DNA of 64,000 nucleotides. It comes from Bdellovibrionota bacterium (GTDB lineage Bacteria; Bdellovibrionota_C; UBA2361; JAAYZI01). How positions within the stretch are numbered: the first letter of the stretch is position 1; the number at the start of each line of letters is the position of its first letter. The notes beneath the pieces are model-generated. The model had not been told where the DNA came from and did no database searches. It worked only from the letters and a program-made list of their open reading frames with translations. The stretch covers positions 128,001-192,000 of the forward strand of contig JBMNIF010000001.1 in the NCBI GenBank assembly GCA_050950765.1. Reading direction: 5' to 3'. The position numbers and the translations under genes are program-made. Shown piece after piece: positions 43,623 to 63,891 of the stretch.

Positions 43623-43715
43623 AGCGTCACCTTTCAGTGACACTTGAACGGGCTGAAACTTGCAGAGCGAATCAACTAGATTTTTACGGAGGTAAAAAGT
43701 GCCACCCTTTAGCAG
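43623..43715 (+). repeat. REP-like unit: degenerate motif AGCGTCACCT, spacer module A, then AGTGCCACCC
   Basis: Aligns closely by eye with 49283-49372. Confidence 0.8.
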
Positions 43716-44186
43716 GGGTCTCCCTATTTTTATATAAAAATTAGGTATTAGATGGTTTTGGAGGGCTCTTCCTATTTTTTGATGAAACTAAACGCAAAAT
43801 AATTATTTCTTTATTTGGATTATTTAATAAGGAGATAAAATCGAGCGATGAAATAACAAAAGAGAATAAAATTCATATAGATACTTTTTATCAATATAGA
43901 AAAGAAATTTTGAATATTTTTAGTCAAGTATTTAACGTGAACTTTTCAAACGAAACGGTAAAAATGTTAAGACAGAAACAAAAAAATAAATAAAAAAACA
44001 CGCTACAAAATCAATATATTATCCCACCCCCTTAACTAGCCTTAGGGTTTAAGCTTAAAATTCACGACTAAAATCTACAGCCTACAAGCTAATCTTTAAA
44101 AATAGATTTCTATAAAAAGCATTTAACGAGTATAATATTATATTTAAATGTAATTAAAACTAGCGATTGATTTAAAAGATAAATAA

Positions 44187-46055
44187 ATGCAAGTAGTAGG
44201 ACAACCGAGAGAACAACGACAGGTAAAAAAACGACAAGCAGAACAGAAAAACACTAAGCAAGGGGGAAATGAAGCTTCTTCTGTTCTTAGCGACTATTCG
44301 TTTTATCCTACCGATAATAGCCCTTGGGTCGATAATAGCCCTTCGATTGAATATTTTTATGCAACCCATGTTTTCCCATCTAACGACGAAACCACTGAAG
44401 CTATAAATGCTTTTCAAGAACAAGCTTATGAATTCAAAAAACAGTTTTTAAACAGCAAAGAGGTAATGTCTTATATCATATCACTAGTTAAAAAATATTT
44501 AACATTAAAAAGAAGTGAGCGTGACACACAATTTTTTTACGACAAAACGTTAAAAAGTTTTAAAAAACTATTACACGAAATCATACCTCCTTATTTTAAA
44601 ACATCTAATTCTTTTAATGATGATGATATAAAGATTTTAATAAAACATGCTACTAATAATTTTTATGCTTATATTATATCTAAGATACGAAAAGATATAA
44701 AACAAAAAGATATAGACGATTCAAATGAAACTAAATTAAAAACAGAAAAAGTAAAACTCTTAGAAAATATTATTAGTAGCTATCACAATTTAACTGAAAA
44801 AAGAAATTATATAGTAGATGCATATAGACAACTTATTAATTACGTCATTAATAAAGATTTTTATTATGAAGATAGAAATGCTACTCAATTCGCTGGGCTT
44901 TTAGGGCTTATTGAAGCCATCGACACTTATGATTCAAAAAAAGAAATCCCTTTTAAAAATTATGCTATAATTATGATTAAATTTTCTATCCAAAAGAATC
45001 TCAGAAGAACAAGAAGAGGAATAGTGGACCTATCTTTTGCAGATTTAGCAGGCGATGGCGATGATTCGGACTACCATGGTCAAGTCGCAGACCCTCGAGA
45101 CCCTTACTCTCAAAAAAACGTAGAAACCGCCCATAAATTATTAGGATATACTTACGGGAAAGCAAAATATATTATACAAATTTCGTGCGGATTTTACGCA
45201 AAAAACGAATATGAATATTATACGTCGCTTGGTGTTATGTCGTATCAACGTGCACACCAAATATATCAAATAACCATCGAAAAATTAAAATTTATATCAG
45301 AAGCCATAAACTATTCTCTTACGCAAGATGAAATCAAGGATATAAAAAATGAAATCAAAGAAAAACTACCAACGATACCAAACAATTATCGCCAAACCAT
45401 ATCGAAACACCTTGGTTTAGATGGAAATAGAGAATATTCAAGAGCTGAGCTATGTGAAGATTTCAATTGCGGAATTGAAACGACAGATACTTATATTTTT
45501 AATGCACTTAAAGGAACTTTTTCTAAAGACCCTAAAATGTTTAATAAAGCATTAAAATTTTCATTAACTATTGAAGATGAATTTATAAAAGAAAATATAT
45601 ATCCTTTGCCACATAATTTATACTCTATTTTAACAGAAGAAGAATCTAGGTTTTTAAAATGTAGATATGATTGGAAAAAAGGAATCTTTAAAGACCTAAA
45701 TCAAGTCGCAAATGATTTAAATACAGATATAACAGAACTTATCGAAATTGAAAGACGAGTTATAGAAAAATTAAAACAATATGAACCAGAAACATTCCCT
45801 AAAATTGGCGCAATATTTAAGGCTAATATTGAAAGCGGAAATATTCAAAGCTCTTTCGATAAAAACTCTCTTTTTATGTTATCTTCACTGCAATTTGAAA
45901 TTATAAATTTAAGGCACGGAATTACTACTTCGGAAAAGTTATCAAAAGAAGATATTATTGAAAAGCTATCTATCGACGCTCAAACGTACGACAAAGAATA
46001 TAAAAATGCGGTTTCTATCTTAAGAGAATTTAGACTAAATACAAACGAGAGTTAA
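44187..46055 (+). CDS. Divergent sigma-70-like protein: region 2 plus about four tandem region-4-like HTH domains
   Basis: RNYIVDAYRQLI...GLLGLIEAIDTYDSKKEIPFKNYA (region 2); repeated L...E..II..R.GL....S..E.A..L segments; AT-rich. Confidence 0.7.
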   Translation: MQVVGQPREQRQVKKRQAEQKNTKQGGNEASSVLSDYSFYPTDNSPWVDNSPSIEYFYATHVFPSNDETTEAINAFQEQAYEFKKQFLNSKEVMSYIISLVKKYLTLKRSERDTQFFYDKTLKSFKKLLHEIIPPYFKTSNSFNDDDIKILIKHATNNFYAYIISKIRKDIKQKDIDDSNETKLKTEKVKLLENIISSYHNLTEKRNYIVDAYRQLINYVINKDFYYEDRNATQFAGLLGLIEAIDTYDSKKEIPFKNYAIIMIKFSIQKNLRRTRRGIVDLSFADLAGDGDDSDYHGQVADPRDPYSQKNVETAHKLLGYTYGKAKYIIQISCGFYAKNEYEYYTSLGVMSYQRAHQIYQITIEKLKFISEAINYSLTQDEIKDIKNEIKEKLPTIPNNYRQTISKHLGLDGNREYSRAELCEDFNCGIETTDTYIFNALKGTFSKDPKMFNKALKFSLTIEDEFIKENIYPLPHNLYSILTEEESRFLKCRYDWKKGIFKDLNQVANDLNTDITELIEIERRVIEKLKQYEPETFPKIGAIFKANIESGNIQSSFDKNSLFMLSSLQFEIINLRHGITTSEKLSKEDIIEKLSIDAQTYDKEYKNAVSILREFRLNTNES

Positions 46056-46891
46056 CGAATTAACTTAACCACTTTCATAAAAAAATGATTAAACTAAAAA
46101 AATAAAGAAAAATGATACGTAGTAAAAAAGGCAAAATAGAACAACATGATGATTTTATCGAATGCTCATTTCCTCCCTCTTGCACAGCTATTAGAGGCGA
46201 TAATCTAAGCCCTGATAATAAGAAAACTATAGAAGCTATACGTTTATATAAGCAAGAAATGGAAAACTTTAAAGAAAAGTTTTTTAATAATGAAGAAGTT
46301 ACCCCTTATATCATCTCTCTAATTAGGGAGTATACATCTTTTAAAAAGTACAATATTTCAGATAATTTTACTAACCTTAGCGGACAAGATATTAAAGAAC
46401 TACAAGAGGTACTAGAAAGAATTTCTGATCCATCTTTTAAAACGTCACCTCTCTTAGAAAGTAGTGATATAAAAATACTAAGGCATAATGCAAAAGAATT
46501 TTTTTATTCAAATATTATGGGTAGAATAAAAAAAACTTTTGAAAATTTAAATAAAACTAATACGGAAAAAGAAAAATTAGAAGCACTATCTAGCATTCTT
46601 AATAGCTACAATCTTATAGCACAAATAAGAAACGATATAATAAAACCATACGAACGGATTATTAAAAATATAATCTTAAGACATATCATAAAACATGAGA
46701 TAAGCAGAAGCTGCGAAGACCTTTACTCTAGTGTTTTTTTAAAAGTTGTAGAAATAATTAGTGGTTATGACCACGAAAAAAACACATCTTTTTCAACTTA
46801 TCTTTGTGCTGGTTCAGCGTGAAATGGACATTTGAGGTGCTGAAAAAAGCTACTATAATAGCCTGAGTGATATTAACTAATGGGGTGAATA

Positions 46892-47197
46892 ATGGGAAAA
46901 CATTTTAGTGCAGAAGATAAGGTTAAGATATTGAAGGAGCATTTATTAGGAAATAAGCCGTTATCGAGTTTATGCGATAAATACGGCGTACACATTAGTA
47001 CATTTTATGAATGGCAGAAGCTATTATTTGAGGGAGCTATCCAAATTTTTGAGCGGAATAAAAATGGTAGGAAAGAAGAAAAGAAGCAAGCTGAACGGAT
47101 AGATATTTTGGAGAAGAAGCTAACGAAGAAGGATTCTGCGCTAGCGGAGCTTTTGGGGCTTCATATAGATTTAAAAAAAAAGCTTGGGGAGCTTTAA
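46892..47197 (+). CDS. IS3 OrfA (HTH)
   Basis: FSAEDKVKIL...CDKYGVH.STFYEW; ends in an A9G slippery run at 47173-47182. Confidence 0.92.
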   Translation: MGKHFSAEDKVKILKEHLLGNKPLSSLCDKYGVHISTFYEWQKLLFEGAIQIFERNKNGRKEEKKQAERIDILEKKLTKKDSALAELLGLHIDLKKKLGEL

Positions 47198-48195
47198 CGA
47201 AGCGTTGGGTTGAGCCACAAATACGAGATGAGGTGATAGATTTTGTACATGAATGGCAAGAGAAATCAGAAATGAAGCGGGAGATGTTTATAAAGAGGTT
47301 AGGGATAACACGGAGCAAGTACTATGCTTGGGAAAAACATTACGGTAAAGAGAACTTTCATAACGGGCTAATTCCGAGAGATTACTGGCTATTACCCAGT
47401 GAAAGGGAGGCTATTATTAAGTATTATTTAGAGCACTCAAGAGTAGGTTATCGAGCATTAACATACATGATGCTTGACGCAGATGTTGTGGCAGTATCCC
47501 CTGCGACGACCTATAGAGTATTGAAAAGTGCTGGCTTAATGCGTTGCTGGAATGGTTTAAAAAGCAAGAAAGGGACAGGATTTGAACAACCACTTAACCC
47601 GCATGAACATTGGCATACGGATGTTTCATATATCAATATTTGTGGCACATTTTACTATTTTATTGGAGTTTTGGATGGATGTAGTCGGTATTTAGTTGCA
47701 TGGGACATTAGAGAATCGATGAAAGAAATAGATATTGAAGTAGTATTACAAAAGGCTAGAGAAAGTTTTCCAGACGCAAGACCGCGAATTATTTCAGATA
47801 ACGGTTCAGCCTATATTTCAAAAGAGTTTAAGAATTTTATAAAGATATCTGGTATGACTCACGTCAAGACATCACCGTTCTATCCACAATCGAACGGTAA
47901 GATGGAGAGATTTAATGGGACATTAAAAGTAGAAGCGATACGACCTAACACTCCAGTATCACTTGATGATGCGAAAACTATAGTGAGTAAGTTTGTCGAA
48001 GAATATAACAATCAGCGGTTACATTGTGCGCTAGGTTATATAACACCAAATGATAGATTGAATAACAAGCAAGAGGAGATATTTAGAGCTCGAGACAGCA
48101 AATTGGAAGCTGCTAGAGCACATCGCAAGTTAGTAAGAGAGGGGTACCCCTCTCTTACTAACTACAACATTGAACAACAAGCTCAGGTGTGTTAA
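47173..48195 (+). CDS. IS3 OrfB DDE transposase, -1 frame relative to OrfA
   Basis: WHTDVSY, ISDNGSAY, PQSNGKMERFN; frame open from the slippery site (track start 47233). Confidence 0.92.
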   Translation, partial: KKKAWGALTKRWVEPQIRDEVIDFVHEWQEKSEMKREMFIKRLGITRSKYYAWEKHYGKENFHNGLIPRDYWLLPSEREAIIKYYLEHSRVGYRALTYMMLDADVVAVSPATTYRVLKSAGLMRCWNGLKSKKGTGFEQPLNPHEHWHTDVSYINICGTFYYFIGVLDGCSRYLVAWDIRESMKEIDIEVVLQKARESFPDARPRIISDNGSAYISKEFKNFIKISGMTHVKTSPFYPQSNGKMERFNGTLKVEAIRPNTPVSLDDAKTIVSKFVEEYNNQRLHCALGYITPNDRLNNKQEEIFRARDSKLEAARAHRKLVREGYPSLTNYNIEQQAQVC

Positions 48196-49235
48196 CTAGG
48201 GTTTTGTGGCATGACAAAAGTCCATTTCCATCAGAGGCAGAACATCTTTATGAGAGAATGCCTGGCGTTCTTATAGACATATATAGGGATGAAAATAAAG
48301 GAATACGAAGTTTAGGTGATGACGAAAAAAGCGTATTTTCTCCTACTCCTTTTTCGCAACTAGGTGATACGCAAATAGGTGGTAATACAGATAATGACAG
48401 CCGAGTAAATTATGACGGTAAAATTGAAGACAAACATGACCATACAGCCGATAATACGGCAAATCTTGCCTATAATTTTTTAAATTATACTTACGGAAAA
48501 GAAAGATATATTATAAAAAGTTCTTTCGGATTTTATGTAGAAGATAAATATCAATATCTTGTAGGTGATTTAGAACCTAGTGCACATTTTTATAGACAAA
48601 AAGTTTTAGGGAAATTACAACTTATATCTGTAGCCGTAGACTATTTTATCACACAAGATGAAAACAAGGATATAAAAAATGAAATTAAAAATGGGTTATC
48701 ACGCTTAGACAAACGTGTTGCTATATCTGTATCAAAACTTATCCCTAAACTTATCTCAAAACATTTTGGATTAGATGGAGATGAAGAGCAATCTAGGTTT
48801 GAACTGTGCGATATTTACGACTTAAAAATTGAGTCTATAGATAGTTATATTTTAAAATCACTCGAAATAATCTTTGAAAAAGACCCTAAAATGTTTAATA
48901 AAGCATTAAAATTTTCATTAACTATTGAAGATGAATTTATAAAAGAAAATATATATCCTTTGCCACATAATTTATACTCTATTTTAACAGAAGAAGAATC
49001 TAGGTTTTTAAAATGTAGATATGATTGGAAAAAAGGAATCTTTAAAGACCTAAACCAAGTCGCAAATGATTTAAATACAGATATAACAGAACTTATCGAA
49101 ATTGAAAGAAGAGTTATAGAAAAATTAGAAAAATATGAGCCAGAAATATTCCCTAAGCTTTGCGCAATGTTTGAAGCAAATATTGAAAGCGGAAATATAA
49201 GAGGAGAGGAGCTGTATGCTCTAGCTGTATGATCT

Positions 49236-49450
49236 GGTGCCACCCATTAGATTTGGCTAGATCTGCAGATTTTGCTGGCTTTGGTGCCACCCTTCACAGT
49301 GACACTTGAATGGGCTGCGATCGCAGAGCGAATCGGCTTGATTTTTACGGAGGTAAAAAGTGCCACCCTTTAGGGACGGCTGAACGGGCTGATACTGAAA
49401 AGCGAATCAGCTAGATTTTTACGAAGGTAAAAAGTGCCACCCTTCAGCAG
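49236..49450 (+). repeat. REP-like interspaced array, 4 motif copies
   Basis: GGTGCCACCC at 49236 and 49283; AGTGCCACCC at 49359 and 49433. Confidence 0.9.
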
Positions 49451-49682
49451 GACGGGATTAGCTGAATTTTGATCCTTACATAACGCTACTAACACAATTC
49501 TTGACTTCTAGCTGTACACAAAATTTATCGCGGTCTCTAAAGATGCAGTCATGTATACTATAATTTTACAGAAATTTAGGTTGTAAAGAAAAATTTTTTT
49601 ATAACCGATAGTAATCTGAAATATTTAGAAAGTTTCACAAAAATTTCTACAAGATAGTAATAAGTTTTAATAAGATATTAGA

Positions 49683-50366
49683 ATGATAAATACATTTAGA
49701 AAGTTCTGGCCTGTAATACTAGCTTCTTTTATGCCATTAATTTTACTGTACTGCTGTTGGCTAATTTCTCCTTATTTTTTAGAGGGTAAGTTTACTTCAA
49801 CAAAACTCCTTGCCCTACTTATATTGGCATTTTTAATAATACTAATAGAGTCTCTTTCATTTCCTTTAGCAATCTTAAGCATAAAAAAAGAAAAAAATTA
49901 CGTCATTATTAGAAAAAGCTTCTCATTTTGGAGGGATTCTTTCCTTATCTCTGCGACGGCTGGCGTGGTTTGGACTATTATAGCAGTTATAATAATCTAT
50001 GTTTTTAATTTGGATTTAACAAGAATAGAAGTAGAAATGAAACTAAGAATGGGACCTTTCTTTAACTTTATAAATATTTTTACTACATGTAGTATAATAT
50101 ATTTCATCAGCAAACTTGCAAATCGCACTTTTGGATTTCGTATTGAAAAATGGGGAGCAGTTAGACTATTACTATACTTCTTAATCTTTAGTTTAATAAT
50201 ACTTTATTTGAAACATATAATTATAATATCGCATGGGTGGTCAATGCCTTTCGTGGTATTACTAAATGTATTTGAAGATTGTATACTTTTAACCATTATG
50301 CAATTAGCTTTAGCGTATGAAGGATTTAAATCTATAAAAAATGTTACTGAAAAAACCAAAGTTTAG
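49683..50366 (+). CDS. Hypothetical polytopic membrane protein (AT-rich)
   Basis: 227 aa, about six hydrophobic helices. Confidence 0.65.
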   Translation: MINTFRKFWPVILASFMPLILLYCCWLISPYFLEGKFTSTKLLALLILAFLIILIESLSFPLAILSIKKEKNYVIIRKSFSFWRDSFLISATAGVVWTIIAVIIIYVFNLDLTRIEVEMKLRMGPFFNFINIFTTCSIIYFISKLANRTFGFRIEKWGAVRLLLYFLIFSLIILYLKHIIIISHGWSMPFVVLLNVFEDCILLTIMQLALAYEGFKSIKNVTEKTKV

Positions 50367-50405
50367 TAAAGAATTCCCAATTTTTGCCACTATACGGTTA
50401 AAATT

Positions 50406-51821
50406 TTAAATTTTAAGCTCTTGGCAGATTTCTTTAATGTATTTAAGCGTGGCACAATCTACCCATTTTTCTGGATTTTTTGCTGAGCGTTTTTTTACAC
50501 ACTTACTTAAAAAATGCATAACTTTTGAAAGAGAATGTCCTTTGCATTTTTGACTTTTATTGATTGGTTTTTTTATTCTTGTAAGCATAATACATGAAAT
50601 ATAATTTATAAATTCGGTTGCCATTAATCTATATGTGCCATGCACATTTTCTTCCGTTCGATTTATTATATTTTTGTATTTATAAAATAATGTCTCTATT
50701 TCCCATCTCTGTTTATATGCTTTATATATATCTCTTAAGTTTCCATCAAAATTACTCTCAAATACTATTAACCCAAAATTATCTTCCTTTTTTTTATAAA
50801 TCTCTTCATCAAATACTCCCTTTTCAATATTTCTACTAACATAACTTTTTTCTTGCTTAGCTTTTATTTCACTACTTTTATATGCATAGTAATATTTATT
50901 GTTATCTACTTTAACTTTATTACACCTTATACTGTCATTTTCGTATTTAAAAGATTCAGTAAATTTTCTATTAAGTTCATATTTAGTTATATCTTTTGAA
51001 TAATTCTTAATAGGTATCAAAAAATTAGTATTAAGTTTTTTTAATTCTTCTTTAATCTCCTTATCATTAAATCCCTTATCCATAATAATAAAACCGTTTT
51101 CAATCGTGTAAGTTTTAAGAAAATCTTTTAATGCCGTAAAATCAAGCATATTGCCAGCATACGGTGCGCAGGCTAAAGGTTCTTCGTTTTTAAGGTCATA
51201 AGCATAAATTAAATTTATATCCTTACAGCCTTTGATTCTTCCTTTCCTTGAGAATTCAGAATATATATTACTGTCTCCAGTGCTACTTTTAAGCATTCCA
51301 TCTATGACAATAGGATTATTAATATATTTACTTATCCTATAACTCATAAACTTCTCTATTAGAGTAGTTGTCTGACCTATCTTTTCTAAAAAAGCACTTA
51401 TGTTATTTCCAGATAAACCAAGCTTAGGAAATATTTCTGATATGTAATCCGTCTTGTATTCTAATAAGATTTCTCCATCTTTTAAATCTTCCTTAACCAC
51501 TCTTAACAAAGCAATGGTAAAGATTTTTTTAGCATCACTAGTATGATAAAATTTACATAAATCATAAAATATATCTTCGCACTCCTTATATATTAGCGCA
51601 GTTAATCCATATGACTTAAATTCAACTTCAAATTTAGGCTTTTCTATTGGAATATATTTACCATCAATTATTTTTCCTATTATCCCTAACTCTACGGGGT
51701 AAGGCTTGCCGTTTTTTCTGACGCTAGTTCTTTTGATAACATTGTATTCGTTTGGTGTTCTAGTTGCCTTTATTCTAGTATTTTTTGGTTTTAATTTTAA
51801 TATTTCCTCTGGTATTGGCAT
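50406..51821 (-). CDS. DDE transposase, IS4/IS1634-like
   Basis: IVIDG, IIMDKGF, YKQRWEIETLF..YK; likely start MPIPEE at 51821 with AAGGGG RBS. Confidence 0.85.
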   Translation of the reverse strand: MPIPEEILKLKPKNTRIKATRTPNEYNVIKRTSVRKNGKPYPVELGIIGKIIDGKYIPIEKPKFEVEFKSYGLTALIYKECEDIFYDLCKFYHTSDAKKIFTIALLRVVKEDLKDGEILLEYKTDYISEIFPKLGLSGNNISAFLEKIGQTTTLIEKFMSYRISKYINNPIVIDGMLKSSTGDSNIYSEFSRKGRIKGCKDINLIYAYDLKNEEPLACAPYAGNMLDFTALKDFLKTYTIENGFIIMDKGFNDKEIKEELKKLNTNFLIPIKNYSKDITKYELNRKFTESFKYENDSIRCNKVKVDNNKYYYAYKSSEIKAKQEKSYVSRNIEKGVFDEEIYKKKEDNFGLIVFESNFDGNLRDIYKAYKQRWEIETLFYKYKNIINRTEENVHGTYRLMATEFINYISCIMLTRIKKPINKSQKCKGHSLSKVMHFLSKCVKKRSAKNPEKWVDCATLKYIKEICQELKI

Positions 51822-51843
51822 TTCAAATCCCCTTAAAAAACGA

Positions 51844-52340
51844 ATAATGGCAGATCTGGCTGCAGGGTTTAGTCGGCTTTGTAGCTGGATAATGGCAGAT
51901 CTGGTGCCACCCTTCAACTTTGCTGCTTTAAGCTGCGATCTGGTCGCTAGTATCTGGTGCCACCCATTAATTTGGCTGGATCTGATAGGTTTCGGCTAGC
52001 TTTAGTTTTGGTGCCACCCTCTAGGGATGGCGGACGGTGGGCTAGCGTCTGGTGCCACCCTCTAGGGACGACGGATCAGCTACGGGGGTTAAAAAACTGG
52101 TGCCACCCTTCCAGTTGGCTGGATTTGCAGATTTTGTGGCTTTGGCTTTGGTGCCACCCTTCAGCGTTGCCGCTTTAAGCTGAATATCTGGTGCCACCCT
52201 TCAACTTTGCCGCTTTAAGCTGCGACTGGCTTTGGTGCCACCCTCTAGGGATGGCGGACGGTGGGCTAGCGTCTGGTGCCACCCTCTAGGGACGGCGGAT
52301 CAGCTACGGGGGTTAAAAAACTGGTGCCACCCTTCCAGTG
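51844..52340 (+). repeat. REP-like interspaced array, 10 copies of TGGTGCCACCC(T/A)
   Basis: Motif starts 51903, 51956, 52010, 52051, 52099, 52150, 52190, 52234, 52275, 52323 (pitch 40-54 bp). Confidence 0.95.
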
Positions 52341-52360
52341 ACAGTTCCTGCATGTAGTTA

Positions 52361-54643: not shown

Positions 54644-54776
54644 ATAACCGTTTCATTTATAAATAAAAAAATAACAAACTGCGCAGAGAGGTGTTAGAGA
54701 TACCCCAATTAAAAGCGTCTGTCGACATTTTTTAAGATTAAAATCAGAGTAATTATTATTGATAAAAAGAACGTAA

Positions 54777-55967
54777 TTATGTTGTTAGTATTTTGCTATC
54801 TATTCTGTCATATAAGCTGTTTAAGTCACGTTGAAAGATCTCAAAAGTGTAACGTTCTTCGGCAAGTTCGTGTGCGGCATTCCCTATTTTATGGCGCAGA
54901 TCTGGATCTGAAATTAATTTTTTTAATCCTTGCGCATAGCTATCGGGTGTGGGATCTGTGAGGATTGAAACGGTGTTGTTTAAAACCTGTGTGTGCGTTG
55001 GAAGATTTGTCGCAATGATTGCTTTACCGGAATGTAGATATGAATATATTTTCATGGGAGTGTTGTTCCCACGTAGTCTGGGAGAAGCTAAAATGTCAGC
55101 TTGAAGGAGGTAGCTTTTTAAACGATTGACAGCTCTACGTCCTGCAAGGTGTGCTCTATCTGAAAGATTTAATGCTGAAATCTTTGTTTTCCCTGCTGAG
55201 ATATGTTCATCACTACCACCAATAATAACGAGATGTGCTTTATCAAAGGAGTGCGCAATTTTTGCAAAAGCATCAATCAAAAGACCGCAGCCCTGATAAG
55301 GTTCAAGGTTCCCGACATATAGAATAACCAAAGAATCAGGGGGGATGTTTAATTCTTCTCTAAGCGTCTGCTGTGAAGTTGTTTGAGAATTATCTAATCC
55401 AAGGAGAGATATGTCTCGTAAGATCTGAGTGTCCTGTGAACCCTGATTGTAGGCAATGGCAGCGAGAGCATCGCAAACAGGAACTACTGCCATACTGTGT
55501 TTAATGGCTCGTCCTTCAAGAAAAGAGAGTAGCGGGAGAAAAGGACGAAAAATGCGCCATTTTTCAGTTAATTGTTGTGCTATTGATGAATCCATGTCGT
55601 AGATATACGGAATTTTCCAAAATACTTTGATTAGCATTGCAATGAAAACAGATTCTTCTACGGCATGAACTAAGTCATAAGGATTTTTTCTATTTTTCCA
55701 AACTAGCTTCAAAGCAGTAAATAAAAAAATGATATCGCAAAAGAGTTTTTTAACGGAGATACCAGGGGCGATATTGTTTAGAAAAAAAGGTGCTTTGATC
55801 CGTATATGATTAACATTCGGTATGCTTATGTCAGTCCCTTCGTGATATGTTAAAAGATCGATAGAGTCTTCTTTTCTTGTGGCAAGAACTTGAACTGCTA
55901 ATCTAACAGCTATCGGAGTGCCACGGTCTTGAAAAAACGGTTGTGGTGCTAAAAATAAAATACGCAT
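54777..55967 (-). CDS. Glycosyltransferase family 4
   Basis: MRILFLAPQPFF..RGTP, YVGNLEPYQG, PMKIYSYL; start reset to 55967. Confidence 0.9.
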   Translation of the reverse strand: MRILFLAPQPFFQDRGTPIAVRLAVQVLATRKEDSIDLLTYHEGTDISIPNVNHIRIKAPFFLNNIAPGISVKKLFCDIIFLFTALKLVWKNRKNPYDLVHAVEESVFIAMLIKVFWKIPYIYDMDSSIAQQLTEKWRIFRPFLPLLSFLEGRAIKHSMAVVPVCDALAAIAYNQGSQDTQILRDISLLGLDNSQTTSQQTLREELNIPPDSLVILYVGNLEPYQGCGLLIDAFAKIAHSFDKAHLVIIGGSDEHISAGKTKISALNLSDRAHLAGRRAVNRLKSYLLQADILASPRLRGNNTPMKIYSYLHSGKAIIATNLPTHTQVLNNTVSILTDPTPDSYAQGLKKLISDPDLRHKIGNAAHELAEERYTFEIFQRDLNSLYDRIDSKILTT

Positions 55968-56010
55968 AGCATGGGATGATAAAACAAAAATTGTAAAAAG
56001 GACACCCGAC

Positions 56011-56066
56011 TTGTCCCTGGTGCCACCCACCAGCGCTAAGCCCTTGTCACTGGTGCCACCCACCAG
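56011..56066 (+). repeat. Pair of REP-like motifs downstream of the RAYT gene
   Basis: TTGTC(C/A)CTGGTGCCACCCACCAG twice; motif starts 56019 and 56052. Confidence 0.9.
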
Positions 56067-56278
56067 TACGACCTGCTTTGCTGTTTTTGCTCTTCTGACA
56101 GCCTTTTTTCTGCTTATGCCACTGCCAGCAAGCTTAGTTCACCTTAAATTTCCTTAAATTTGATACTACAACTTACTATTAATTGACTATTTTCAGATTT
56201 TAGATAGATCTTCCCTGTTGAAATTTAGATTTCATATTATTAACGGGTCAAAAAAGCAGCTTTTTTACATTACTTTTT

Positions 56279-57247
56279 TCAGGTCGCCACCCCGCAAAGC
56301 CTACCTACAATAGGCATACTCGGACGAAATGCCCCATAAACAAACTTGGCTGAAATATCACCTTGCTTCCACTTCTTCCAAGCCTTTCTACACTCTTCAC
56401 AAAAAGCCTTATATTCTGCTATCGCCTTTATCCGTAACTCCTTAATCCAACAAATTAAATACGGCGTACGTGTCTTCTTCTTAGGTACATACGCAATATT
56501 TATCGATTGCTGCTGCACTTTACGCATCCCCATAAAATGCCCCTTCCTTTCAAGTGCAATCTCTTCTTCCCTTTTTGAAATCTCTGTCATTATTGTTTTA
56601 AAGATCTCTTCAGACGTAAGGTTTTTTGATTCTTCAAAACAATTCTTCCAAGCATCAGGGGTAATCTTAAGCTCATGACAAGTGTGCGGAAACATATTAA
56701 GCATTTTTAATAAAATAGCATCGCTTATTTTATGAAGTCTCTGCGGTAACTTACGTAAATTAGTAGAAGAGGTATACTTACCCTGCACTGTTAAAGAACC
56801 TGATTTATACATTCTAAAACTACTACACCCTTCCCAATCAGCAGCGTGTGCAACGAGTCCTGCTTTTACAGGATTTATATAAATATAGACTATCTTATCG
56901 ATAACATCATTATGAGTTACCAAACGTTGCTCCTTAAAACGTCCATCCCAAACGTTTCTCCTATATTGCGGTGTTAGTTTCTTAATAGCACGTGCAACTG
57001 CACTTTCCATCTCTCCCATAAATGCAGAGATGTGCTTTCCTTCACCAACTAATATCATGTGAAAGTGGTTACTCATCCAATTAAAATGAGCAATTCTAAC
57101 ACGATGGTGCTCTTGGCAACGTGCCATAATCCCTAACAGGATCCATTTCATAAAAAGGCGTGCTAGAAATGGCAAGCCAGATAATGTTCTATTGGTGACA
57201 TGTACCACCATTTTATTAGGATTTCTCCTATCTCTACGATTTCTCAT
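56279..57247 (-). CDS. HUH/Y1 tyrosine transposase, REP-associated (RAYT-like), long form
   Basis: HVTNR, WMSNHFHMIL (HUH), VWDGRFK, YIYINPVKAGLV (catalytic Tyr), WEGCSS; no adjacent tnpB. Confidence 0.88.
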   Translation of the reverse strand: MRNRRDRRNPNKMVVHVTNRTLSGLPFLARLFMKWILLGIMARCQEHHRVRIAHFNWMSNHFHMILVGEGKHISAFMGEMESAVARAIKKLTPQYRRNVWDGRFKEQRLVTHNDVIDKIVYIYINPVKAGLVAHAADWEGCSSFRMYKSGSLTVQGKYTSSTNLRKLPQRLHKISDAILLKMLNMFPHTCHELKITPDAWKNCFEESKNLTSEEIFKTIMTEISKREEEIALERKGHFMGMRKVQQQSINIAYVPKKKTRTPYLICWIKELRIKAIAEYKAFCEECRKAWKKWKQGDISAKFVYGAFRPSMPIVGRLCGVAT

Positions 57248-57397
57248 AAGACAACTCCAGAAAAAAAATAAAAATAATTAATAAATTGGCAGAATTGCCG
57301 GTTAGCTTGGCAGGATTGCCAAATTCTAACGCCTAATTGTCGCTAGAGTTGGGATTTTATTGTGGGTAAAAATGAAAAAAGTTTGGAGATTGGGATT

Positions 57398-57871
57398 GGT
57401 GCCACCCTTTAGTGCGAGGATGGTGTTAGAAAAAGAAAAGAAGGGTGGCACCAGTTTTACCCCCGTGAAGACCTAGCTGATCCGTTTTACAGTTCCAGCC
57501 CGTCCGATTGTCCCTGAAGGGTGGCACCAGTGACAAGCCTGCAACAATTGCTGATTTAAGGGCAAAAAGAAGGGTGGCACCAGTTTTTTAACCCCCGTGA
57601 AGACCTAGCTGATCCGTTTTGCAGTCCCAGCCCGTTCAGTTGTCCCTGAAGGGTGGCACCAGTGACAAGCCTGCAATAATTGCTGATTTAAGGGCAAAAA
57701 GAAGGGTGGCACCAGTTTTTTAACCCCCGTGAAGACCTAGCTGACTCTGTTTTCAGTTACAGCCCGTTCGGTTGTCCCTGAAGGGTGGCACCAGTTTTTA
57801 CCCCCGTGAAGAGCTAGCTGATCCGTTTTGCAGTCCCAGCCCGTCCGGTCGTCCCTGAAGGGTGGCACCAG
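57398..57871 (-). repeat. REP-like array upstream of the RAYT gene: one forward and seven reverse motif copies
   Basis: GGTGCCACCC at 57398; GGGTGGCACC at 57443, 57519, 57572, 57651, 57704, 57783, 57860; alternating ~77-bp and 53-bp units. Confidence 0.95.
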
Positions 57872-57883
57872 TGCTAACCTCGT

Positions 57884-58960
57884 TTAATAGATAACAGGTG
57901 TTGTGATTCTCGGGGGGTTATTGCCGTATCTTGTGATGGTTGCTTGCATAAAGTAAGAAGCTTGGTTCGGATATGCAACGCGGGCGATAACTTCATAGGT
58001 GTTATTGCTCGTGCTGTTTGTAGTAATGATGCTCTTTAGTTCATTCTGTTGTTCTTTTGCAACTTCTGTAAGGTTGAAGAATTCATTTATATCATTAAAT
58101 TTTCCGTTTTCACGGCTATTTCGTTCTTCTATAATCCTTTCAGCGGTGTCTTCGTCAATTTTATCGTCTAGCGCCATCAGAATTTCTTTTGGGGCAATGT
58201 TAACGTCGATTTTGCCACTTCCTCTTGTTGTAATAAATGGCACAAGTAGGCGTAAGCGTTGTGGAGTAAAGCCTGGAATGTTTGAAAGCTCTTCACGTTC
58301 AATAATACTGGCGTAATCGTTTTTAAATTCACTACCCTCAGGCAAGGTATCTTCACATCCTTTTACGATGACGCCGTTTATAGTATCACTGAAAGATGTT
58401 TTATCTATATCCAAGTAATCTATTAAATTCCCCAACATCTCTTCTGGAGTGAAAACTTTATTCCCACATAAACCAGAAGGATTTTTTTCTTCTATGGCAC
58501 CGAGATCAAGAATTGTGAAAAGTCGTAAACATACCTCTCGTAACTTCGTAATTGTGTTGGAAACGGTCGTATTATTTTCAACTCTATGAATTGGAAAACT
58601 ACCCGTTATTGGTGTAATTTGAAGCGCTATTCTGGCACCTTCATTAGGATCCACTCCAAAAAATCCTAAAAATTCAGGAGGGATTTCTAGCCCGTCTTTA
58701 AACGGCTCCCAAGCTTCTGTATTGATAATATCTTGACTATTTGTGTTTTTGCCAACCTGAATCAAGCTAGCAGCATAGTTTGTCAGAGATTTGAGAATGT
58801 ATTCCGCTTTTAGACGATTTTTAATTACACCTATTGATTCAGCTTGTAAAAATGTTGAATGCGCCAAGCTTGTCACAAGAATTGTGGCAAAAGCTAAAAA
58901 CATAATGACCAGCAGTAAGACAACAGCGTTTTCTCCCTTTTGTTGATTGCGGTGTGTCAT
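57884..58960 (-). CDS. gspK: Type II secretion minor pseudopilin GspK-like protein
   Basis: QKG|ENAVVLLLVIM prepilin-like N-terminus, LIDYLDID, EELSNIPGF, KIDVNIAP..IL.AL. Confidence 0.8.
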   Translation of the reverse strand: MTHRNQQKGENAVVLLLVIMFLAFATILVTSLAHSTFLQAESIGVIKNRLKAEYILKSLTNYAASLIQVGKNTNSQDIINTEAWEPFKDGLEIPPEFLGFFGVDPNEGARIALQITPITGSFPIHRVENNTTVSNTITKLREVCLRLFTILDLGAIEEKNPSGLCGNKVFTPEEMLGNLIDYLDIDKTSFSDTINGVIVKGCEDTLPEGSEFKNDYASIIEREELSNIPGFTPQRLRLLVPFITTRGSGKIDVNIAPKEILMALDDKIDEDTAERIIEERNSRENGKFNDINEFFNLTEVAKEQQNELKSIITTNSTSNNTYEVIARVAYPNQASYFMQATITRYGNNPPRITTPVIY

Positions 58961-59154
58961 TCTTTCCTTATCTCCTTAATCGAGATGATAGATATTTTTA
59001 CAAAGAATAACCACTCCTTTCATCTCCTGACTTCTGAGTTTTTTGTCTAAAATTATTTTTTTAAGGAGTTAACTTATTAAAAAATAATGAGAAGTTTTGA
59101 AAAACATTAAAAATGCCTAAAATATTTTCATATAATGCTATCCACCAGTAGGCT

Positions 59155-59175
59155 AAAAGCAGGTGCCACCCATCA
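59155..59175 (+). repeat. Solo REP-like motif within a 21-bp direct repeat (left copy)
   Basis: AAAAGCAGGTGCCACCCATCA. Confidence 0.85.
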
Positions 59176-60315
59176 AATTTGATCTATAAAGGAGCAAATG
59201 GTTTCAACATCTTGGTTGTCTGTATAATAATGCGGTGAAAATCTAAACACAAACTTACTTCCATTATCTGGGAAAAAAATCGGACAATCCCAATCACATA
59301 CTAAAGAAACAACAATACTTTCTGTTTCCAATGCTGTTTTTATTTCCACTTCTTTTGAAGGGTCTTTTAAGTAAAATGACGCAATTCCAGACCTTGATTT
59401 TTCTTTACCGAATAGATAAATATTCTGATTCCTCATAATTGCATCTCGTATTTTGTTGGCCTTTCGTTCAATTTCTAGCGAGGCTTTCTCCACTCCATAT
59501 TCTAAATATTCATTGATTGCATTTCCTAATCCTAATAATGAAGCAATACTTTTTTCCCAAAGTTCAAACTGTTTTGCATCATCACGAACTTTCACTCCTT
59601 TAACATCGCCATTACTATCAAAAATTAGATCAGCAGATGCTAAATCAATCTGTGGTGTATAAATATTTGCACCATCCTTGACATATAGAATTCCTGTCCC
59701 TCGTGGTCCGCGTAGCCATTTTCTCCCAGCTGCAACATATGCATCACAGTTTATTTCTTTCATATTCGCGACTATTTGCCCAACAGCTTGGCAACCATCA
59801 ACAATATAGGTAGCGCCATATTTTCTAGCCATTTTCCCCATTTCTACCACTGGATTAACGATTGATCCTTGTGCTGCAACATGGCTAACAGCTAAAATTG
59901 TTCCTCCTCCTCGCAATGCACTTTCTAAGTTTTCTAATGAAAAATCCCCATTCGGCTTGCACGGAATCACATTCACTGAGCAGCCAGTTTTTTTTGCAAT
60001 ATCAAATATTGTTAATAAGTTTGTACCATACTCACTTGACAACGTAACAATCTTATCGCATGCACTTATTTTTATTCCATACATGATTAGATTCCAGCCA
60101 CGACTTGCGCTATCAACAAATGCTATTTCACTTTTATTATCTGCATTAAGCATTTTGGCTGATAATTCGTAAAATTTGTTTACATCTTCCTGCTTATCAA
60201 TTGCAGCTTTATATGCGCCAATCTTCATTTCAAGTTTCATGTGGTCCACAACAGTATTAAATGTTCCATTACTCATTAATCCTGCTCCGGCATTATCAAA
60301 ATACAGTGTTTTCAT
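59173..60315 (-). CDS. PLP-dependent class V aminotransferase (cysteine desulfurase/C-S lyase-like)
   Basis: YFDNAGAG, VDGCQAVG, AGRKWLRGPRGTG, RFSPHYYT. Confidence 0.9.
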   Translation of the reverse strand: MKTLYFDNAGAGLMSNGTFNTVVDHMKLEMKIGAYKAAIDKQEDVNKFYELSAKMLNADNKSEIAFVDSASRGWNLIMYGIKISACDKIVTLSSEYGTNLLTIFDIAKKTGCSVNVIPCKPNGDFSLENLESALRGGGTILAVSHVAAQGSIVNPVVEMGKMARKYGATYIVDGCQAVGQIVANMKEINCDAYVAAGRKWLRGPRGTGILYVKDGANIYTPQIDLASADLIFDSNGDVKGVKVRDDAKQFELWEKSIASLLGLGNAINEYLEYGVEKASLEIERKANKIRDAIMRNQNIYLFGKEKSRSGIASFYLKDPSKEVEIKTALETESIVVSLVCDWDCPIFFPDNGSKFVFRFSPHYYTDNQDVETICSFIDQI

Positions 60316-60326
60316 TATTTATCCTC

Positions 60327-60547
60327 TCAACTTTCTGCAACAAATTTTGCAATAGCAACCCCCAGTTCTCTCAAATTCCAAACTGTCGGATTTGAATCAT
60401 TATCGGTTATCATGCCTCGCAATTCTAAATCCCTCACAGTGTTACGCAGCTCAATCTCTGGCACAGCAACCATTTCCGAAATCTTTATCGCCGAAAGAGA
60501 GTCGTTGTTCTTATATATTGCGGATAGAATTTGAAGTTGTATAAAGT
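60327..60547 (-). pseudogene. 3' remnant of a gene ending in a winged-helix-like domain, cut by IS1634
   Basis: Open frame FIQLQILSAIYKNNDSLSAIKISEMVAVPEIELRNTVRDLELRGMI...AES* reaches the IS end at 60548; not in the ORF track. Confidence 0.6.
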
Positions 60548-61348
60548 CCTAAATTCCCGTTTTTTTATAGTCTACACCTTAGTATTTAATATTTTATCGA
60601 CAAAAATCTTCTGGTCAATTTCTAATGCTTCTAAAATATCTTTTTGTTTTTTTGTTAATGGCTGTAGTAGCATGCTCAGATTTTCATTATCTATGCGTCT
60701 TATCATTTTAAGCGTTTCTAAAACTCTCTGAATGGTTTTTTCTACTTTTTTGTTATTATTATTTATAGTTCTTTGTAGGTCTGACCACATAATTAAGCTA
60801 AGAAAGGAAACGAAGCTTTTGCCGTCAGTAGTTTTTTCATTATGTGTTAGCATACGGTCATTATCCAATTCATTTTTTAAATTATCGAAAGCTTTCTCAA
60901 TAAAGTCTCGTCGTGAATAGATATGAAGTGCTTCTTGTGGTGTCATTGTTGAGTGGTTACTCAAAAAAGCAAAAACTCCTAGCATAGATAAGATATCGGT
61001 AATTTTTTCATGATCTCTTTCAAAACTTTCTAACTGCACTTCTTTCTTAGTTTTTATTTTGTAGTATTTAGAGTAGCGACTCATACTCATAGGCTTTTTC
61101 ATTTCTTTTAGTTCATCTTCTAATCTGTCAATATGAGAGTAAAGAGTGCTCTCTTCCTCAGATGCACTTTTTGTATTTAAGTAAACGTAGAGAGAAAATT
61201 TTTCTCCATTTATCACAATATCTTTTCTTACCCCATAACAATTTGTCCCAGATATGTGATTCCTAGAAGAGCGAAGAGTAACAGATACTTCCCTCATAGT
61301 GTTCTGCCTCTGATGGAAATGGACTTTTGTCATGCCACAAAACCCTAG

Positions 61349-62311
61349 TTAACACACCTGAGCTTGTTGTTCAATGTTGTAGTTAGTAAGAGAGGGGTAC
61401 CCCTCTCTTACTAACTTGCGATGTGCTCTAGCAGCTTCCAATTTGCTGTCTCGAGCTCTAAATATCTCCTCTTGCTTGTTATTCAATCTATCATTTGGTG
61501 TTATATAACCTAGCGCACAATGTAACCGCTGATTGTTATATTCTTCGACAAACTTACTCACTATAGTTTTCGCATCATCAAGTGATACTGGAGTGTTAGG
61601 TCGTATCGCTTCTACTTTTAATGTCCCATTAAATCTCTCCATCTTACCGTTCGATTGTGGATAGAACGGTGATGTCTTGACGTGAGTCATACCAGATATC
61701 TTTATAAAATTCTTAAACTCTTTTGAAATATAGGCTGAACCGTTATCTGAAATAATTCGCGGTCTTGCGTCTGGAAAACTTTCTCTAGCCTTTTGTAATA
61801 CTACTTCAATATCTATTTCTTTCATCGATTCTCTAATGTCCCATGCAACTAAATACCGACTACATCCATCCAAAACTCCAATAAAATAGTAAAATGTGCC
61901 ACAAATATTGATATATGAAACATCCGTATGCCAATGTTCATGCGGGTTAAGTGGTTGTTCAAATCCTGTCCCTTTCTTGCTTTTTAAACCATTCCAGCAA
62001 CGCATTAAGCCAGCACTTTTCAATACTCTATAGGTCGTCGCAGGGGATACTGCCACAACATCTGCGTCAAGCATCATGTATGTTAATGCTCGATAACCTA
62101 CTCTTGAGTGCTCTAAATAATACTTAATAATAGCCTCCCTTTCACTGGGTAATAGCCAGTAATCTCTCGGAATTAGCCCGTTATGAAAGTTCTCTTTACC
62201 GTAATGTTTTTCCCAAGCATAGTACTTGCTCCGTGTTATCCCTAACCTCTTTATAAACATCTCCCGCTTCATTTCTGATTTCTCTTGCCATTCATGTACA
62301 AAATCTATCAC
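61349..62311 (-). CDS. IS3 OrfB DDE transposase
   Basis: Protein identical to 47233-48195. Confidence 0.92.
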   Translation of the reverse strand: MIDFVHEWQEKSEMKREMFIKRLGITRSKYYAWEKHYGKENFHNGLIPRDYWLLPSEREAIIKYYLEHSRVGYRALTYMMLDADVVAVSPATTYRVLKSAGLMRCWNGLKSKKGTGFEQPLNPHEHWHTDVSYINICGTFYYFIGVLDGCSRYLVAWDIRESMKEIDIEVVLQKARESFPDARPRIISDNGSAYISKEFKNFIKISGMTHVKTSPFYPQSNGKMERFNGTLKVEAIRPNTPVSLDDAKTIVSKFVEEYNNQRLHCALGYITPNDRLNNKQEEIFRARDSKLEAARAHRKLVREGYPSLTNYNIEQQAQVC

Positions 62312-62346
62312 CTCATCTCGTATTTGTGGCTCAACCCAACGCTTCG

Positions 62347-62652
62347 TTAAAGCTCCCCAAGCTTTTTTTTTAAATCTATATGAAGCCCCAAAAGCTCCGC
62401 TAGCGCAGAATCCTTCTTCGTTAGCTTCTTCTCCAAAATATCTATCCGTTCAGCTTGCTTCTTTTCTTCTTTCCTACCATTTTTATTCCGCTCAAAAATT
62501 TGGATAGCTCCCTCAAATAATAGCTTCTGCCATTCATAAAATGTACTAATGTGTACGCCGTATTTATCGCATAAACTCGATAACGGCTTATTTCCTAATA
62601 AATGCTCCTTCAGTATCTTAACCTTATCTTCTGCACTAAAATGTTTTCCCAT
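62347..62652 (-). CDS. IS3 OrfA
   Basis: Protein identical to 46892-47197. Confidence 0.92.
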   Translation of the reverse strand: MGKHFSAEDKVKILKEHLLGNKPLSSLCDKYGVHISTFYEWQKLLFEGAIQIFERNKNGRKEEKKQAERIDILEKKLTKKDSALAELLGLHIDLKKKLGEL

Positions 62653-63870
62653 TATTCACCCCATTAGTTAATATCACTCAGGCTATTATAGTAGCTTTTT
62701 TCAGCACCTCAAATGTCCATTTCACGCTGAACCAGCACAATAGTATCGTTGTAATTTTTCTGAGATTTAGGAACAGCTACGAGAAATTCTATTTGCTCTT
62801 TTTTTATATATTCTAAATTTTCTTTTGTAATAAAACCTCTATCCAGAACATAAAATATATCATCAATACCTAAGTTTTTAGAGTATTCCATCATTGTTGT
62901 AAGAAAAACTTTATCAACAACACTTCCACTGTAAAGAAAAAAACTTATTGGTAAATTGCTATCGGTAGCGTATAAAAGCCCGACATTTAGTTGTGGTAAA
63001 TATTCTTTGTCTCTATTGTATCCATTCTCGGCAAGTGGCAAGTCTGCATAAGTAGAAAGGCTCGTAACATCATAAGCTACAGTCTCATTGTTTTTCATAG
63101 CATGGTTTTTCCACACAGAAAAAAACTTCATTTGATCTTGTTTGGTAATCGATGAAAAAAGCTCACTTGTCTTTTGCGAGGATAGAGATATGTTTTTAGG
63201 GGTAAGAGTATTTTGCAAAAAATTATCTATATTCATCATTACATTGCCTTCGCAAGCCATGTATAACGCAGTATAAAAGATATCTTCGTATTTATCGGGA
63301 AAGATTGTTTTTAAGCATTTTAATAACCCTATAGCCTTAGCTCTCATTTTTAATGCGACTACGTGACCTGCGTCCCAAACAAAGCGAGAAGAAGCTAGAT
63401 CAATAACGTCAGATGGCATTGGATAATATTTTTTAAAGTTCTCATTAGGAATCATTCTTCCTTGTCTATCAGGGTCTATCTTTCCCACAATCACTTCATC
63501 ACAAGTAGGTGTGCCGTTCTTATTACGACGATGACCAAGTACGTGATACACATACTTTACGTTTCCTTTGCTATCTTTTTTATACGAAATCTTTTTTTCT
63601 GGAATTGGAATTGAAATATTTATTAAAGCCATTTTGTCTCCTATTTTTTACTGTCCCGTAGACTACGGAAACATGTCTACAGAACAAAAAATGTCAATGG
63701 TTTTTTAAAACTTTCATAAAAACTTAATTAAATAAATATGTTGGAGGAAATATAATATTAGAAAATCTAAATATGAAATTAAATTATTGATATGGACTAC
63801 ATAAAAAACGGGAATTTAGGTCGTTATTGTGGACGAAAAATTTTTTAGGTGCTTCAAGTGCGAAGTCGGG

Positions 63871-63891
63871 AAAAGTAGGTGCCACCCATCA
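63871..63891 (+). repeat. Solo REP-like motif within a 21-bp direct repeat (right copy)
   Basis: AAAAGTAGGTGCCACCCATCA, 20/21 identical to 59155-59175. Confidence 0.85.

Follow-up and report, generated by a model that had tools for sequence, protein, structure and literature searches.

A transposase gene flanked by copies of a short word

The 64,000-nt stretch of DNA analyzed here (the window) corresponds to C1:128001-192000 of the 2.64-Mb genome of an uncultured Bdellovibrionota bacterium of predatory type (G000; 5 contigs, 40% GC). An intact gene at 56279..57247 on the minus strand encodes P0001, an HUH/Y1 tyrosine transposase of 322 aa that represents a long relative of the REP-associated tyrosine transposases (RAYTs; REP, repetitive extragenic palindrome). 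The gene lies among arrays of a 10-nt word, GGTGCCACCC, and the relationship between the two forms the subject of this analysis.

Exact copies of the word number 24 in the window (17 on the plus strand, 7 on the minus strand) and are distributed among seven loci, together with three copies of the variant AGTGCCACCC (at 43698, 49359 and 49433). These figures and loci are identical to those of a preliminary description of the same DNA. By chance, 0.01 copies of the word and 0.03 of the variant would be expected, and none of 100 dinucleotide-preserving shuffles reached 24. When one mismatch is allowed, 28 matches to GGTGCCACCC are found, and the sole match 5' of 43,698 is GGTGCCAACC at 27328 (minus strand); the absence of the word from the first 43.6 kb, as described earlier, thus holds for exact copies.

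Copies of the word are located on both sides of the transposase gene, as had been proposed: at 56019 and 56052 on its downstream side, and between 57398 and 57869 on its upstream side. The two downstream copies (56019..56061, plus strand) are inverted relative to the gene. The second of them (56052-56061), with its flanks, can fold as a hairpin, CTGGTG-loop-CACCAG. Upstream, seven copies in gene orientation form a head-to-tail array (57443..57869, minus strand) with a 132-bp higher-order period composed of units of 79 and 53 nt. The copy of this array nearest to the gene (57443-57452, minus strand) forms an inverted pair (57398..57452) with another copy 35 nt away (57398-57407, plus strand), ~150-205 nt 5' of the ATG.

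Among the remaining loci of the window, a single copy of the variant AGTGCCACCC is located 3' of an nfo-like gene (43698..43707, plus strand), and two exact copies and two AGTGCCACCC variants form an array at 49236..49442 (plus strand). Ten copies form an array (51903..52332, plus strand) located between tex and a transposase gene of the IS1634 family. Its units measure 40-54 nt and make up a mosaic that includes an internal segmental duplication; at 52.0-52.3 kb, a block of 41+48 nt is repeated. Single plus-strand copies were found between a gspK-like gene and a class-V aminotransferase gene (59162..59171) and adjoining an IS1634-family element (63878..63887).

The assignment of P0001 to the RAYT-like proteins, already suggested in the preliminary description, is supported by both sequence profile and fold. 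The protein matches Pfam Y1_Tnp (29.1 bits; cut-off 23). Its score against the NCBIfam model REP_Tyr_transpos (NF047646; 67.4 bits, residues 12-139) is below the cut-off of 80, which places it in a diverged long subfamily rather than in the curated equivalog, and the score against transpos_IS200 (17.7 bits) falls below the cut-off of 55. A 15-sequence profile compared with solved structures matched E. coli TnpA-REP (4ER8) with an E-value of 5.7e-7 and ISDra2 TnpA with 0.02. In the AlphaFold model of P0001 (predicted local distance difference test, pLDDT, 88.1; predicted template-modelling score, pTM, 0.87), the best Foldseek match was again 4ER8 (E 1.7e-6), which VIA-align superimposed with a Z-score of 13.3 and a root-mean-square deviation of 2.8 Å over 154 of 165 residues; the next structure was IS608 TnpA, with a Z-score of 7.8. 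The residues H61-F-H63, Y121, Y123, N125 and P126 were invariant in 15 of 15 homologues. For residues 150-322, nothing better than E 0.03 and no helix-turn-helix (HTH) family was detected in Pfam, and the fold search barely covered residues 229-322.

The gene forms part of a unit of ~1.49 kb (56046..57531, minus strand; boundaries accurate to about ±5 bp), delimited by blastn and MAFFT alignment of six loci of the genome. The six copies are 97-98% identical over 1441-1517 bp, and their flanks diverge beyond the ends. In gene orientation, all six begin with ACTGGTGCCACCC and finish with CTGGTGGGTGGCACCAG, such that terminal inverted repeats distinct from typical REPs (ACTGGTGCCACCC... and ...GGGTGGCACCAG) delimit the unit in 6/6 copies. 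The right end is the conserved word copy that corresponds to 56052-56061 in the window, and the inverted pair 5' of the gene is likewise found in all six. The layout is fixed, with one copy of the word in gene orientation at -205, an inverted copy at -160 and another inverted copy ~218 nt past the stop codon in 6/6 copies; the word is thus tied to the element ends, as the preliminary description had supposed. The unit carries no tnpB gene, and the Y1_Tnp matches in G000 comprise these six gene copies only, at distinct loci. Two of the gene copies are located near contig starts; apart from the unit, the sequence they have in common is limited to a 771-bp segment at the contig end. At the one unit copy with unique flanks, no target-site duplication was evident.

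Differences among five of the gene copies are exclusively synonymous (0-9 per pair), which indicates that P0001 is under purifying selection, at the level of either the host or the element. The copy in the window differs from them by 3 non-synonymous and 7-11 synonymous substitutions. The number of upstream units varies among the six copies, and unit-precise insertions and deletions are visible. Among contigs assembled from four short-read runs, the contig bearing the RAYT-like gene had a depth ~5-6 times that of its neighbours in 4/4, which serves as a weak hint of its copy number.

Two minor features accompany the unit. Beside one copy (C2:8863-9087 of G000), its last ~422 bp are tandemly duplicated, which creates an additional, incomplete 3' fragment of the gene (84% aa identity over residues 246-322). 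In addition, a short palindrome of the form GGCAAT(C/T)CTGCCAA occurs twice at ~57275-57325 (minus strand), 50-95 nt 5' of the ATG, and is kept in 6/6 copies; these palindromes are candidates for an operator or promoter element of the transposase gene.

Abundance and anatomy of the arrays

The word is the commonest 10-mer of G000, with 967 copies (430 forward, 537 reverse) versus two for a control with reversed letters, and all 15 of the top-listed 16-mers hold all or part of it or its immediate flank. Variants with one mismatch add 200 copies (control, 23). The conserved stretch extends over ~20 nt, in which RRA-T-Y-T precedes the word and TTCAG (about one half), ACCAG (about one third) or TTCTT (about one sixth) follows it. 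The two end forms, TGGTGCCACCCTTCAG and TGGTGCCACCCACCAG, occur 307 and 178 times, respectively.

Grouping of copies at gaps of ≤300 bp yielded 143 loci. Among these, 105 contain more than one copy, and in 88 of the 105 all copies point the same way. Neighbouring copies form 824 pairs, of which 802 are head-to-tail, 18 convergent and 4 divergent, with word-to-word spacings of 20-270 nt that display several peaks. No more than 59 of the 967 copies fall within crude open reading frames (ORFs), which make up 82% of the DNA, and at least 94% are intergenic. Of the 1469 intergenic regions, 127 contain the word; in total, the arrays cover 64,344 bp (~2.4% of the genome). The loci are clumped, occupying 74 of 135 20-kb bins, as opposed to a mean of 88.6 and a minimum of 78 in 1000 random intergenic draws; the largest word-free gap is 191 kb (p=0.004). 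They are enriched between convergent genes (39/126 versus a background of 288/1750), and their orientation does not follow that of adjacent genes (same in 82 cases, opposite in 65).

The association with the RAYT-like gene, suspected from the window, extends to the entire genome: 18 of the 143 array loci (12.6%) lie within 2 kb of a gene copy, versus 1.4% for random intergenic regions, and 34% lie within 20 kb, versus 9% (5-13%) expected.

Array orientation is uniform over tens of kb and many separate loci, with no relation to GC skew or gene strand. At C3 380-460 kb, for example, 63 copies are in "+" orientation and none in "-", followed by mostly "-" copies (within C3:380-600 kb); a similar pattern is seen at C1:200-240 kb.

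The 802 word-to-word units include 704 distinct sequences. Upon single-linkage clustering by shared 8-mers, 635 units from 93 loci joined a single network. The two main linker families measure ~69 and ~76 nt. A hidden Markov model (HMM) built from the linker of the ~69-nt family alone found 524 matches genome-wide. Among matches reaching the model ends, the exact word precedes 172 of 285 and follows 201 of 308. The numerous HMM matches and the linkage of units over 93 loci show that whole units have been dispersed and not merely duplicated locally.

For the 69-nt linker family, only adjacent columns showed high mutual information, and no Watson-Crick covariation was detected. The columns alternate between near-invariant (≥0.95) and ~50:50, mostly with transition polymorphism and without pairwise covariation, a pattern that may reflect subfamily structure or a mutational signature.

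The repeat itself is non-classical, as had been anticipated: short, mostly devoid of a hairpin and arranged head-to-tail (802/824 pairs). Several other identities were considered and rejected. A CRISPR-like array is inconsistent with "spacers" that recur and form families, and a sigma-54 promoter (TGGCAC on the reverse strand) with a sequence logo that lacks a -12 element. The idea of a cyanobacterial HIP1/SDR repeat, raised by GCGATCGC at 49.3 kb, was dropped, since only 36 of these occur in 2.6 Mb and the relatives are metagenome-assembled genomes (MAGs) of Bdellovibrionota and Oligoflexia. A search of 43000-64000 against Rfam returned 0 matches at E≤0.1.

Homologues and related systems

A word-indexed protein search recovered 16 homologues of 40-58% identity and one 99% cluster, all on contigs of 930-4065 bp. 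In an exhaustive profile search, 13,429 cluster representatives passed E≤0.001; of the 340 that passed E≤1e-30, nearly all were 300-350 aa long. Named genome records with homologues were MAGs of Bdellovibrionota, Bdellovibrionales, Oligoflexia and "Delta-/Proteobacteria". Within the order to which the window belongs, matches were present in 37 of 41 genomes (G000 included), often several per genome, and three genomes of one genus contained 7, 14 and 18 matches. A metagenome scan added only 3 further homologue loci, of 30-31% identity.

The sequences flanking these genes bear out the connection of gene and repeat. At 11 of 19 homologue loci (the window's included), at least three direct copies of a locus-specific 10-mer were found ~100-430 nt upstream, and in 5 of those 11 (L002, L009, which is the window's own, L010, L016 and L023) an inverted copy follows 230-320 nt past the gene. 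Words other than GGTGCCACCC occupy that layout in L002, L010, L016 and L023. At the other 8 loci, no flanking repeats were found at this threshold, and the flanks were truncated in three of them.

The 11-mer TGGTGCCACCC occurs among 91 genomes of the order as follows: 943 copies in G000, 37 in G019, 16 in G025, 15 in G063, 11 in G068, and 9 each in G073 and G040. In G025, a member of another family, two homologues of 29-30% identity are each enclosed by TTGGTGCCACCCAC in the same arrangement, at -118/-127 in gene orientation and inverted at ~+240. In G040, also of another family, the word lies at -142 from a homologue of 26% identity, with three more copies farther upstream, one of which is the AGTGCCACCC variant. 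The presence of the word beside such diverged enzymes indicates that its link to the gene is older than the families of the order. By contrast, the thousand-fold amplification of the word is so far particular to G000. In G019 (another family; loci L017 and L018), the word appears as inverted pairs ~120-130 nt apart, resembling miniature inverted-repeat transposable elements (MITEs), and as short direct arrays.

Among known systems, the HUH/Y1 fold of P0001 is similar to that of E. coli TnpA-REP (Z-score 13.3), which acts with REPs and bacterial interspersed mosaic elements (BIMEs) and is classified in Bertels group 2 and Quentin subclass 2.2 (PMC3333891; 4ER8). As outlined in that source, the E. 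coli REPtron also comprises a gene between inverted copies of a repeat that represents the most abundant extragenic word, and its repeats form clustered mosaic arrays with variable linkers and varying tandem unit number. The present system differs in having six near-identical gene copies instead of one and a protein of 322 rather than 165 aa, which scores 67 bits against REP_Tyr_transpos (cut-off 80). It differs further in lacking the GTAG tag and, in most copies, the bulged palindrome of 20-40 nt, and its arrays are head-to-tail (802/824 pairs), in contrast to alternating inverted REPs.

TIRtrons, as sketched by Di Nocera et al. 2013 (PMC3733652), consist of RAYT-like genes (TIRYTs) with non-REP terminal inverted repeats (TIRs) that form moderately abundant families. 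They share with the present system the short inverted repeats at fixed distances and the occurrence of these repeats elsewhere as singles, dimers and clusters. Most of the TIRYTs described belong to Quentin subclass 2.1, with C-terminal HTH/DnaA-like domains (Bac_DnaA_C, HTH_23 or HTH_28) and the TIR motif GGGGWSAS, according to the account in PMC6006769. In residues 150-322 of P0001, of which the fold search barely covered the last ~90, no HTH family was detected in Pfam. The word is another one, and its ~1,000 copies exceed what that literature terms "moderately abundant". On the descriptions available in these papers, the system most resembles the TIRtron/TIRYT arrangement of PMC3733652, and appears to work like the REPtron of PMC3333891.

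The REPIN-RAYT systems of Pseudomonas (PMC3116915, PMC5581495) likewise combine a non-autonomous repeat population with a RAYT, whose flanking word is the most abundant 16-mer. In the portrayal given there, REPINs are inverted doublets and the RAYT is single-copy and vertically inherited, with near-identical duplicates on one replicon amounting to 0.8-6.3% for groups 1-3 (PMC5581495). Here, inverted pairs account for only 22 of 824 neighbours, and the gene is present in six copies of 97-98% identity. From the REPIN-RAYT picture as drawn in PMC5581495 and PMC6006769, the present system departs in four respects: the gene is multi-copy, the protein differs in length, the arrays are direct, and the REP hairpin and GTAG are lacking.

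With IS200/IS605 insertion sequences (IS608, ISDra2), the unit shares a multi-copy Y1 HUH transposase and, at one copy, no evident target-site duplication. It differs in that both sequence and fold are nearer to TnpA-REP (Z-score 13.3 versus 7.8; transpos_IS200 17.7 bits versus a cut-off of 55) and that one word, present in inverted orientation, forms both ends in place of two distinct subterminal hairpins; neither tnpB nor strand bias is seen. The literature searched on RAYTs or extragenic palindromes in Bdellovibrio, and on TIRYTs and TIRtrons, yielded no description of this RAYT-like family.

RAYTs are currently pictured as single-copy, vertically inherited, domesticated enzymes that serve inverted-doublet REPINs (PMC5581495; 10.1101/2022.05.22.493013). 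In contrast to this picture stand six selected copies of the enzyme, 7-18 paralogous matches per genome in relatives of the same order, and a near-hairpinless, head-to-tail repeat whose word is kept across very diverged enzymes. The system thereby offers natural material for studying how Y1 enzymes read targets without a REP hairpin and how BIME-like arrays form. Arrays and a multi-copy gene break short-read assemblies. The homologues in the protein database are confined to contigs of 930-4065 bp, and MAGs therefore probably under-represent systems of this kind.

Proposed mechanism, competing explanations and neighbouring genes

The favoured explanation, with a probability of about 0.72, is a system of the REPtron/TIRtron type, in which a ~1.49-kb element encodes a long RAYT-like HUH/Y1 transposase and its end sequence has spread as a non-autonomous repeat. 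The link between the enzyme and the word is well supported by the comparison of sequences. The system is unusual in three respects: its enzyme is encoded in multiple copies, the core mostly lacks a hairpin, and the arrays are direct instead of inverted.

The element is delimited by a short end sequence in inverted orientation, whose core TGGTGCCACCC has YT before it and TTCAG or ACCAG after it, and would have spread to six loci. The end sequence, along with variable linker modules of 20-120 nt, would have spread non-autonomously to ~1,000-1,170 copies at 143 intergenic loci. The observed properties from which this proceeds are the fold and catalytic motifs of the enzyme, the fixed gene-motif layout, the conservation of this layout and of the word in distant homologues, the genome-wide abundance and intergenic location of the word, its enrichment around the six genes, and the dispersal of shared unit families to more than 90 loci. 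The manner in which the enzyme may spread the word is drawn by analogy from E. coli TnpA-REP and the BIME model as outlined in PMC3333891. By this analogy, the enzyme would bind the word on single-stranded DNA, nick beside it and rejoin the strands; units would be excised, inserted next to existing copies and added in tandem. Ordinary unequal recombination would contribute as well, leading to head-to-tail mosaic arrays.

A bolder extension, which is possible but doubtful, views the long RAYT subfamily as a mobile element that is still autonomous and multi-copy, intermediate between IS200-like elements and the domesticated, single-copy RAYTs. Such an enzyme would read the linear TGGTGCCACCC and not a folded REP, and would insert units beside existing copies, resulting in directional, head-to-tail arrays. 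If true, this would constitute a self-targeting mode of single-strand transposition that builds arrays and is not described for RAYTs.

A number of observations weigh against the favoured REPtron/TIRtron-type system. Characterised RAYTs require a folded REP plus GTAG. No hairpin common to all copies was found (mean DNA minimum free energy, -6.5 versus -6.0 kcal/mol for shuffles), and the GTAG tag is absent from the sequence logo of the word copies. A 6-bp CTGGTG/CACCAG stem (CTGGTG-CCACC-CACCAG) appears in 16% of the minimum-energy folds, such that most copies are without a REP-like hairpin; in another subset, the 3' part of the word (GCCACCC) forms a short stem with a following GGGAC-type segment. 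IS200/IS605 elements show replication-strand bias, and no relation of word orientation to GC skew or replication strand was found here. Slippage or unequal crossing-over alone would yield the same unit-precise insertions and deletions, and local higher-order duplications are evident. In G030 and G015, the homologues' own flanking words are confined to the gene locus (4 of 4 copies at the gene and 11 of 11 in one array beside it, respectively), so the spread is either not general to the family or hidden by fragmented MAGs. In G019, a genome of 20 contigs and 92% completeness, the word occurs 51 times (control, 3), yet protein, profile and Pfam searches found no homologue. Finally, the public runs are available as short-read contigs, broken at the arrays.

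Several of these points would suit a satellite-like tandem family maintained by a host function, with replication slippage and unequal recombination lengthening and shortening its arrays and the RAYT-like element having only targeted or captured its word. The 51 copies in G019 without a detectable homologue fit such a family, as do the higher-order tandem duplications (the 132-bp period at 57.4-57.9 kb and the repeated 41+48-nt block at 52.0-52.3 kb), the 22 inverted pairs among 824 neighbour pairs and the uniform array orientation over tens of kb. It is nonetheless considered unlikely, given that the word stands at fixed distances from the gene in homologues of 26-30% identity and that other homologues have different words in equal positions, as expected of element ends rather than of a target. 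Moreover, unit families are common to more than 90 separate loci, and the loci are enriched around the six genes. Far less probable is a recognition site of a host factor (a DNA-uptake signal, nucleoid protein, regulator or terminator), amplified for its function. The core GGTG-C-CACC is indeed palindromic on double-stranded DNA, some copies, read on the opposite strand, form a short stem with a T run behind it, the word is overlapped by 4 of the 12 terminator-like sites between 49000 and 59400 (7.8 ± 2.9 sites expected), and the loci are enriched between convergent genes (39/126 versus 288/1750). DNA-uptake signals, however, are generally evenly spread and also occur inside genes. The copies of the word are packed in 143 loci (74/135 bins against a null mean of 88.6, with a largest gap of 191 kb), no more than 59 of 967 are in crude ORFs, and no orientation rule (82 same, 65 opposite), no sigma-54 -12 element after TGGCAC and no Rfam family match were found.

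According to the preliminary description, the arrays partition the region into core genes and captured foreign cargo, or possibly serve as a platform for capture or rearrangement. This proposal was not sustained, and is regarded as highly improbable. In its favour, three of the seven window loci (43.7 kb, 51.9 kb and 63.9 kb) adjoin insertion sequence (IS) elements or a low-GC block, and a slight genome-wide excess of array loci is seen within 5 kb of IS-like repeats (segments of ≥500 bp; 81 segments, 143 kb in total), namely 34% versus 24% (18-31%) for random intergenic regions; within 2 kb, the values are 18% versus 13% (7.7-18%). At the 20-kb scale, in contrast, the arrays were associated genome-wide neither with repeats (Fisher p=0.30) nor with GC (rho 0.11, p=0.22). 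The word is found in 127 of 1469 intergenic regions genome-wide, and several window loci separate ordinary genes, such as that at 59162 between the gspK-like and aminotransferase genes. A strain-variable stretch (joint 44223 to 46172) ends at no motif, and an empty site of an IS3 element (46799 to 48244), which likewise does not end at a motif, reflects an ordinary IS insertion. Gene order in relatives was of little help: homologues of the family 4 glycosyltransferase (GT4) and gspK-like proteins in five relatives are 30-53% identical, and the relatives, at 30-62% aa identity, are too distant for synteny to decide the matter. The two homologues share a contig only in G009 (4.6 kb apart), and tex was found at E≤1e-50 in one of the five.

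What had been taken for cargo comprises IS3 and IS1634 elements, ORFs of unknown function and a low-GC block in which two ORFs weakly resemble sigma-70. PADLOC returned 0 matches for five of the cargo ORFs. The low-GC block (44187-46822; 28-31%) encodes proteins of 622 and 236 aa with weak matches to sigma-70 region 2, and its stretch 44223-46172 is considered strain-variable because 92 other letters replace it in 2 of 4 contig sets from other samples. In the short-read contigs of the four runs, joints across the arrays rest on sides of 20-44 letters and represent repeat artefacts.

The IS1634-family transposase gene at 50406-51917 (minus strand) abuts the 10-copy array at 51903. Its TTG start as listed extends into the first repeat, and the true start probably lies farther downstream. 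Similarly, the GT4 ORF (54777-56063, minus strand) as listed starts with a GTG inside the repeat at 56052-56061; since the alignment with homologues begins only at residue ~31, translation probably starts ~90 nt farther downstream.

A 1,444-bp IS3-family element is present in two copies, at 46800-48243 (plus strand) and 61296-62739 (minus strand), with an OrfA (HTH_Tnp_1) and an OrfB (rve). The first copy appears to be a recent or polymorphic insertion, because it is absent from 3 of the 4 contig sets from other samples, in which 46799 is joined to 48244. The GC skew is negative at 50-63 kb; an inversion between the two oppositely oriented copies was rejected as its origin, since the contigs lacking the IS3 element are collinear from 46799 to 48244. 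The second copy splits an IS1634-family transposase gene, of which 60572-61333 and 62709-63632 (minus strand) represent the C- and N-terminal parts, in a nested insertion. Intact IS1634 copies at other sites of the genome account for the joint of 61295 to 62740 in 4/4 runs.

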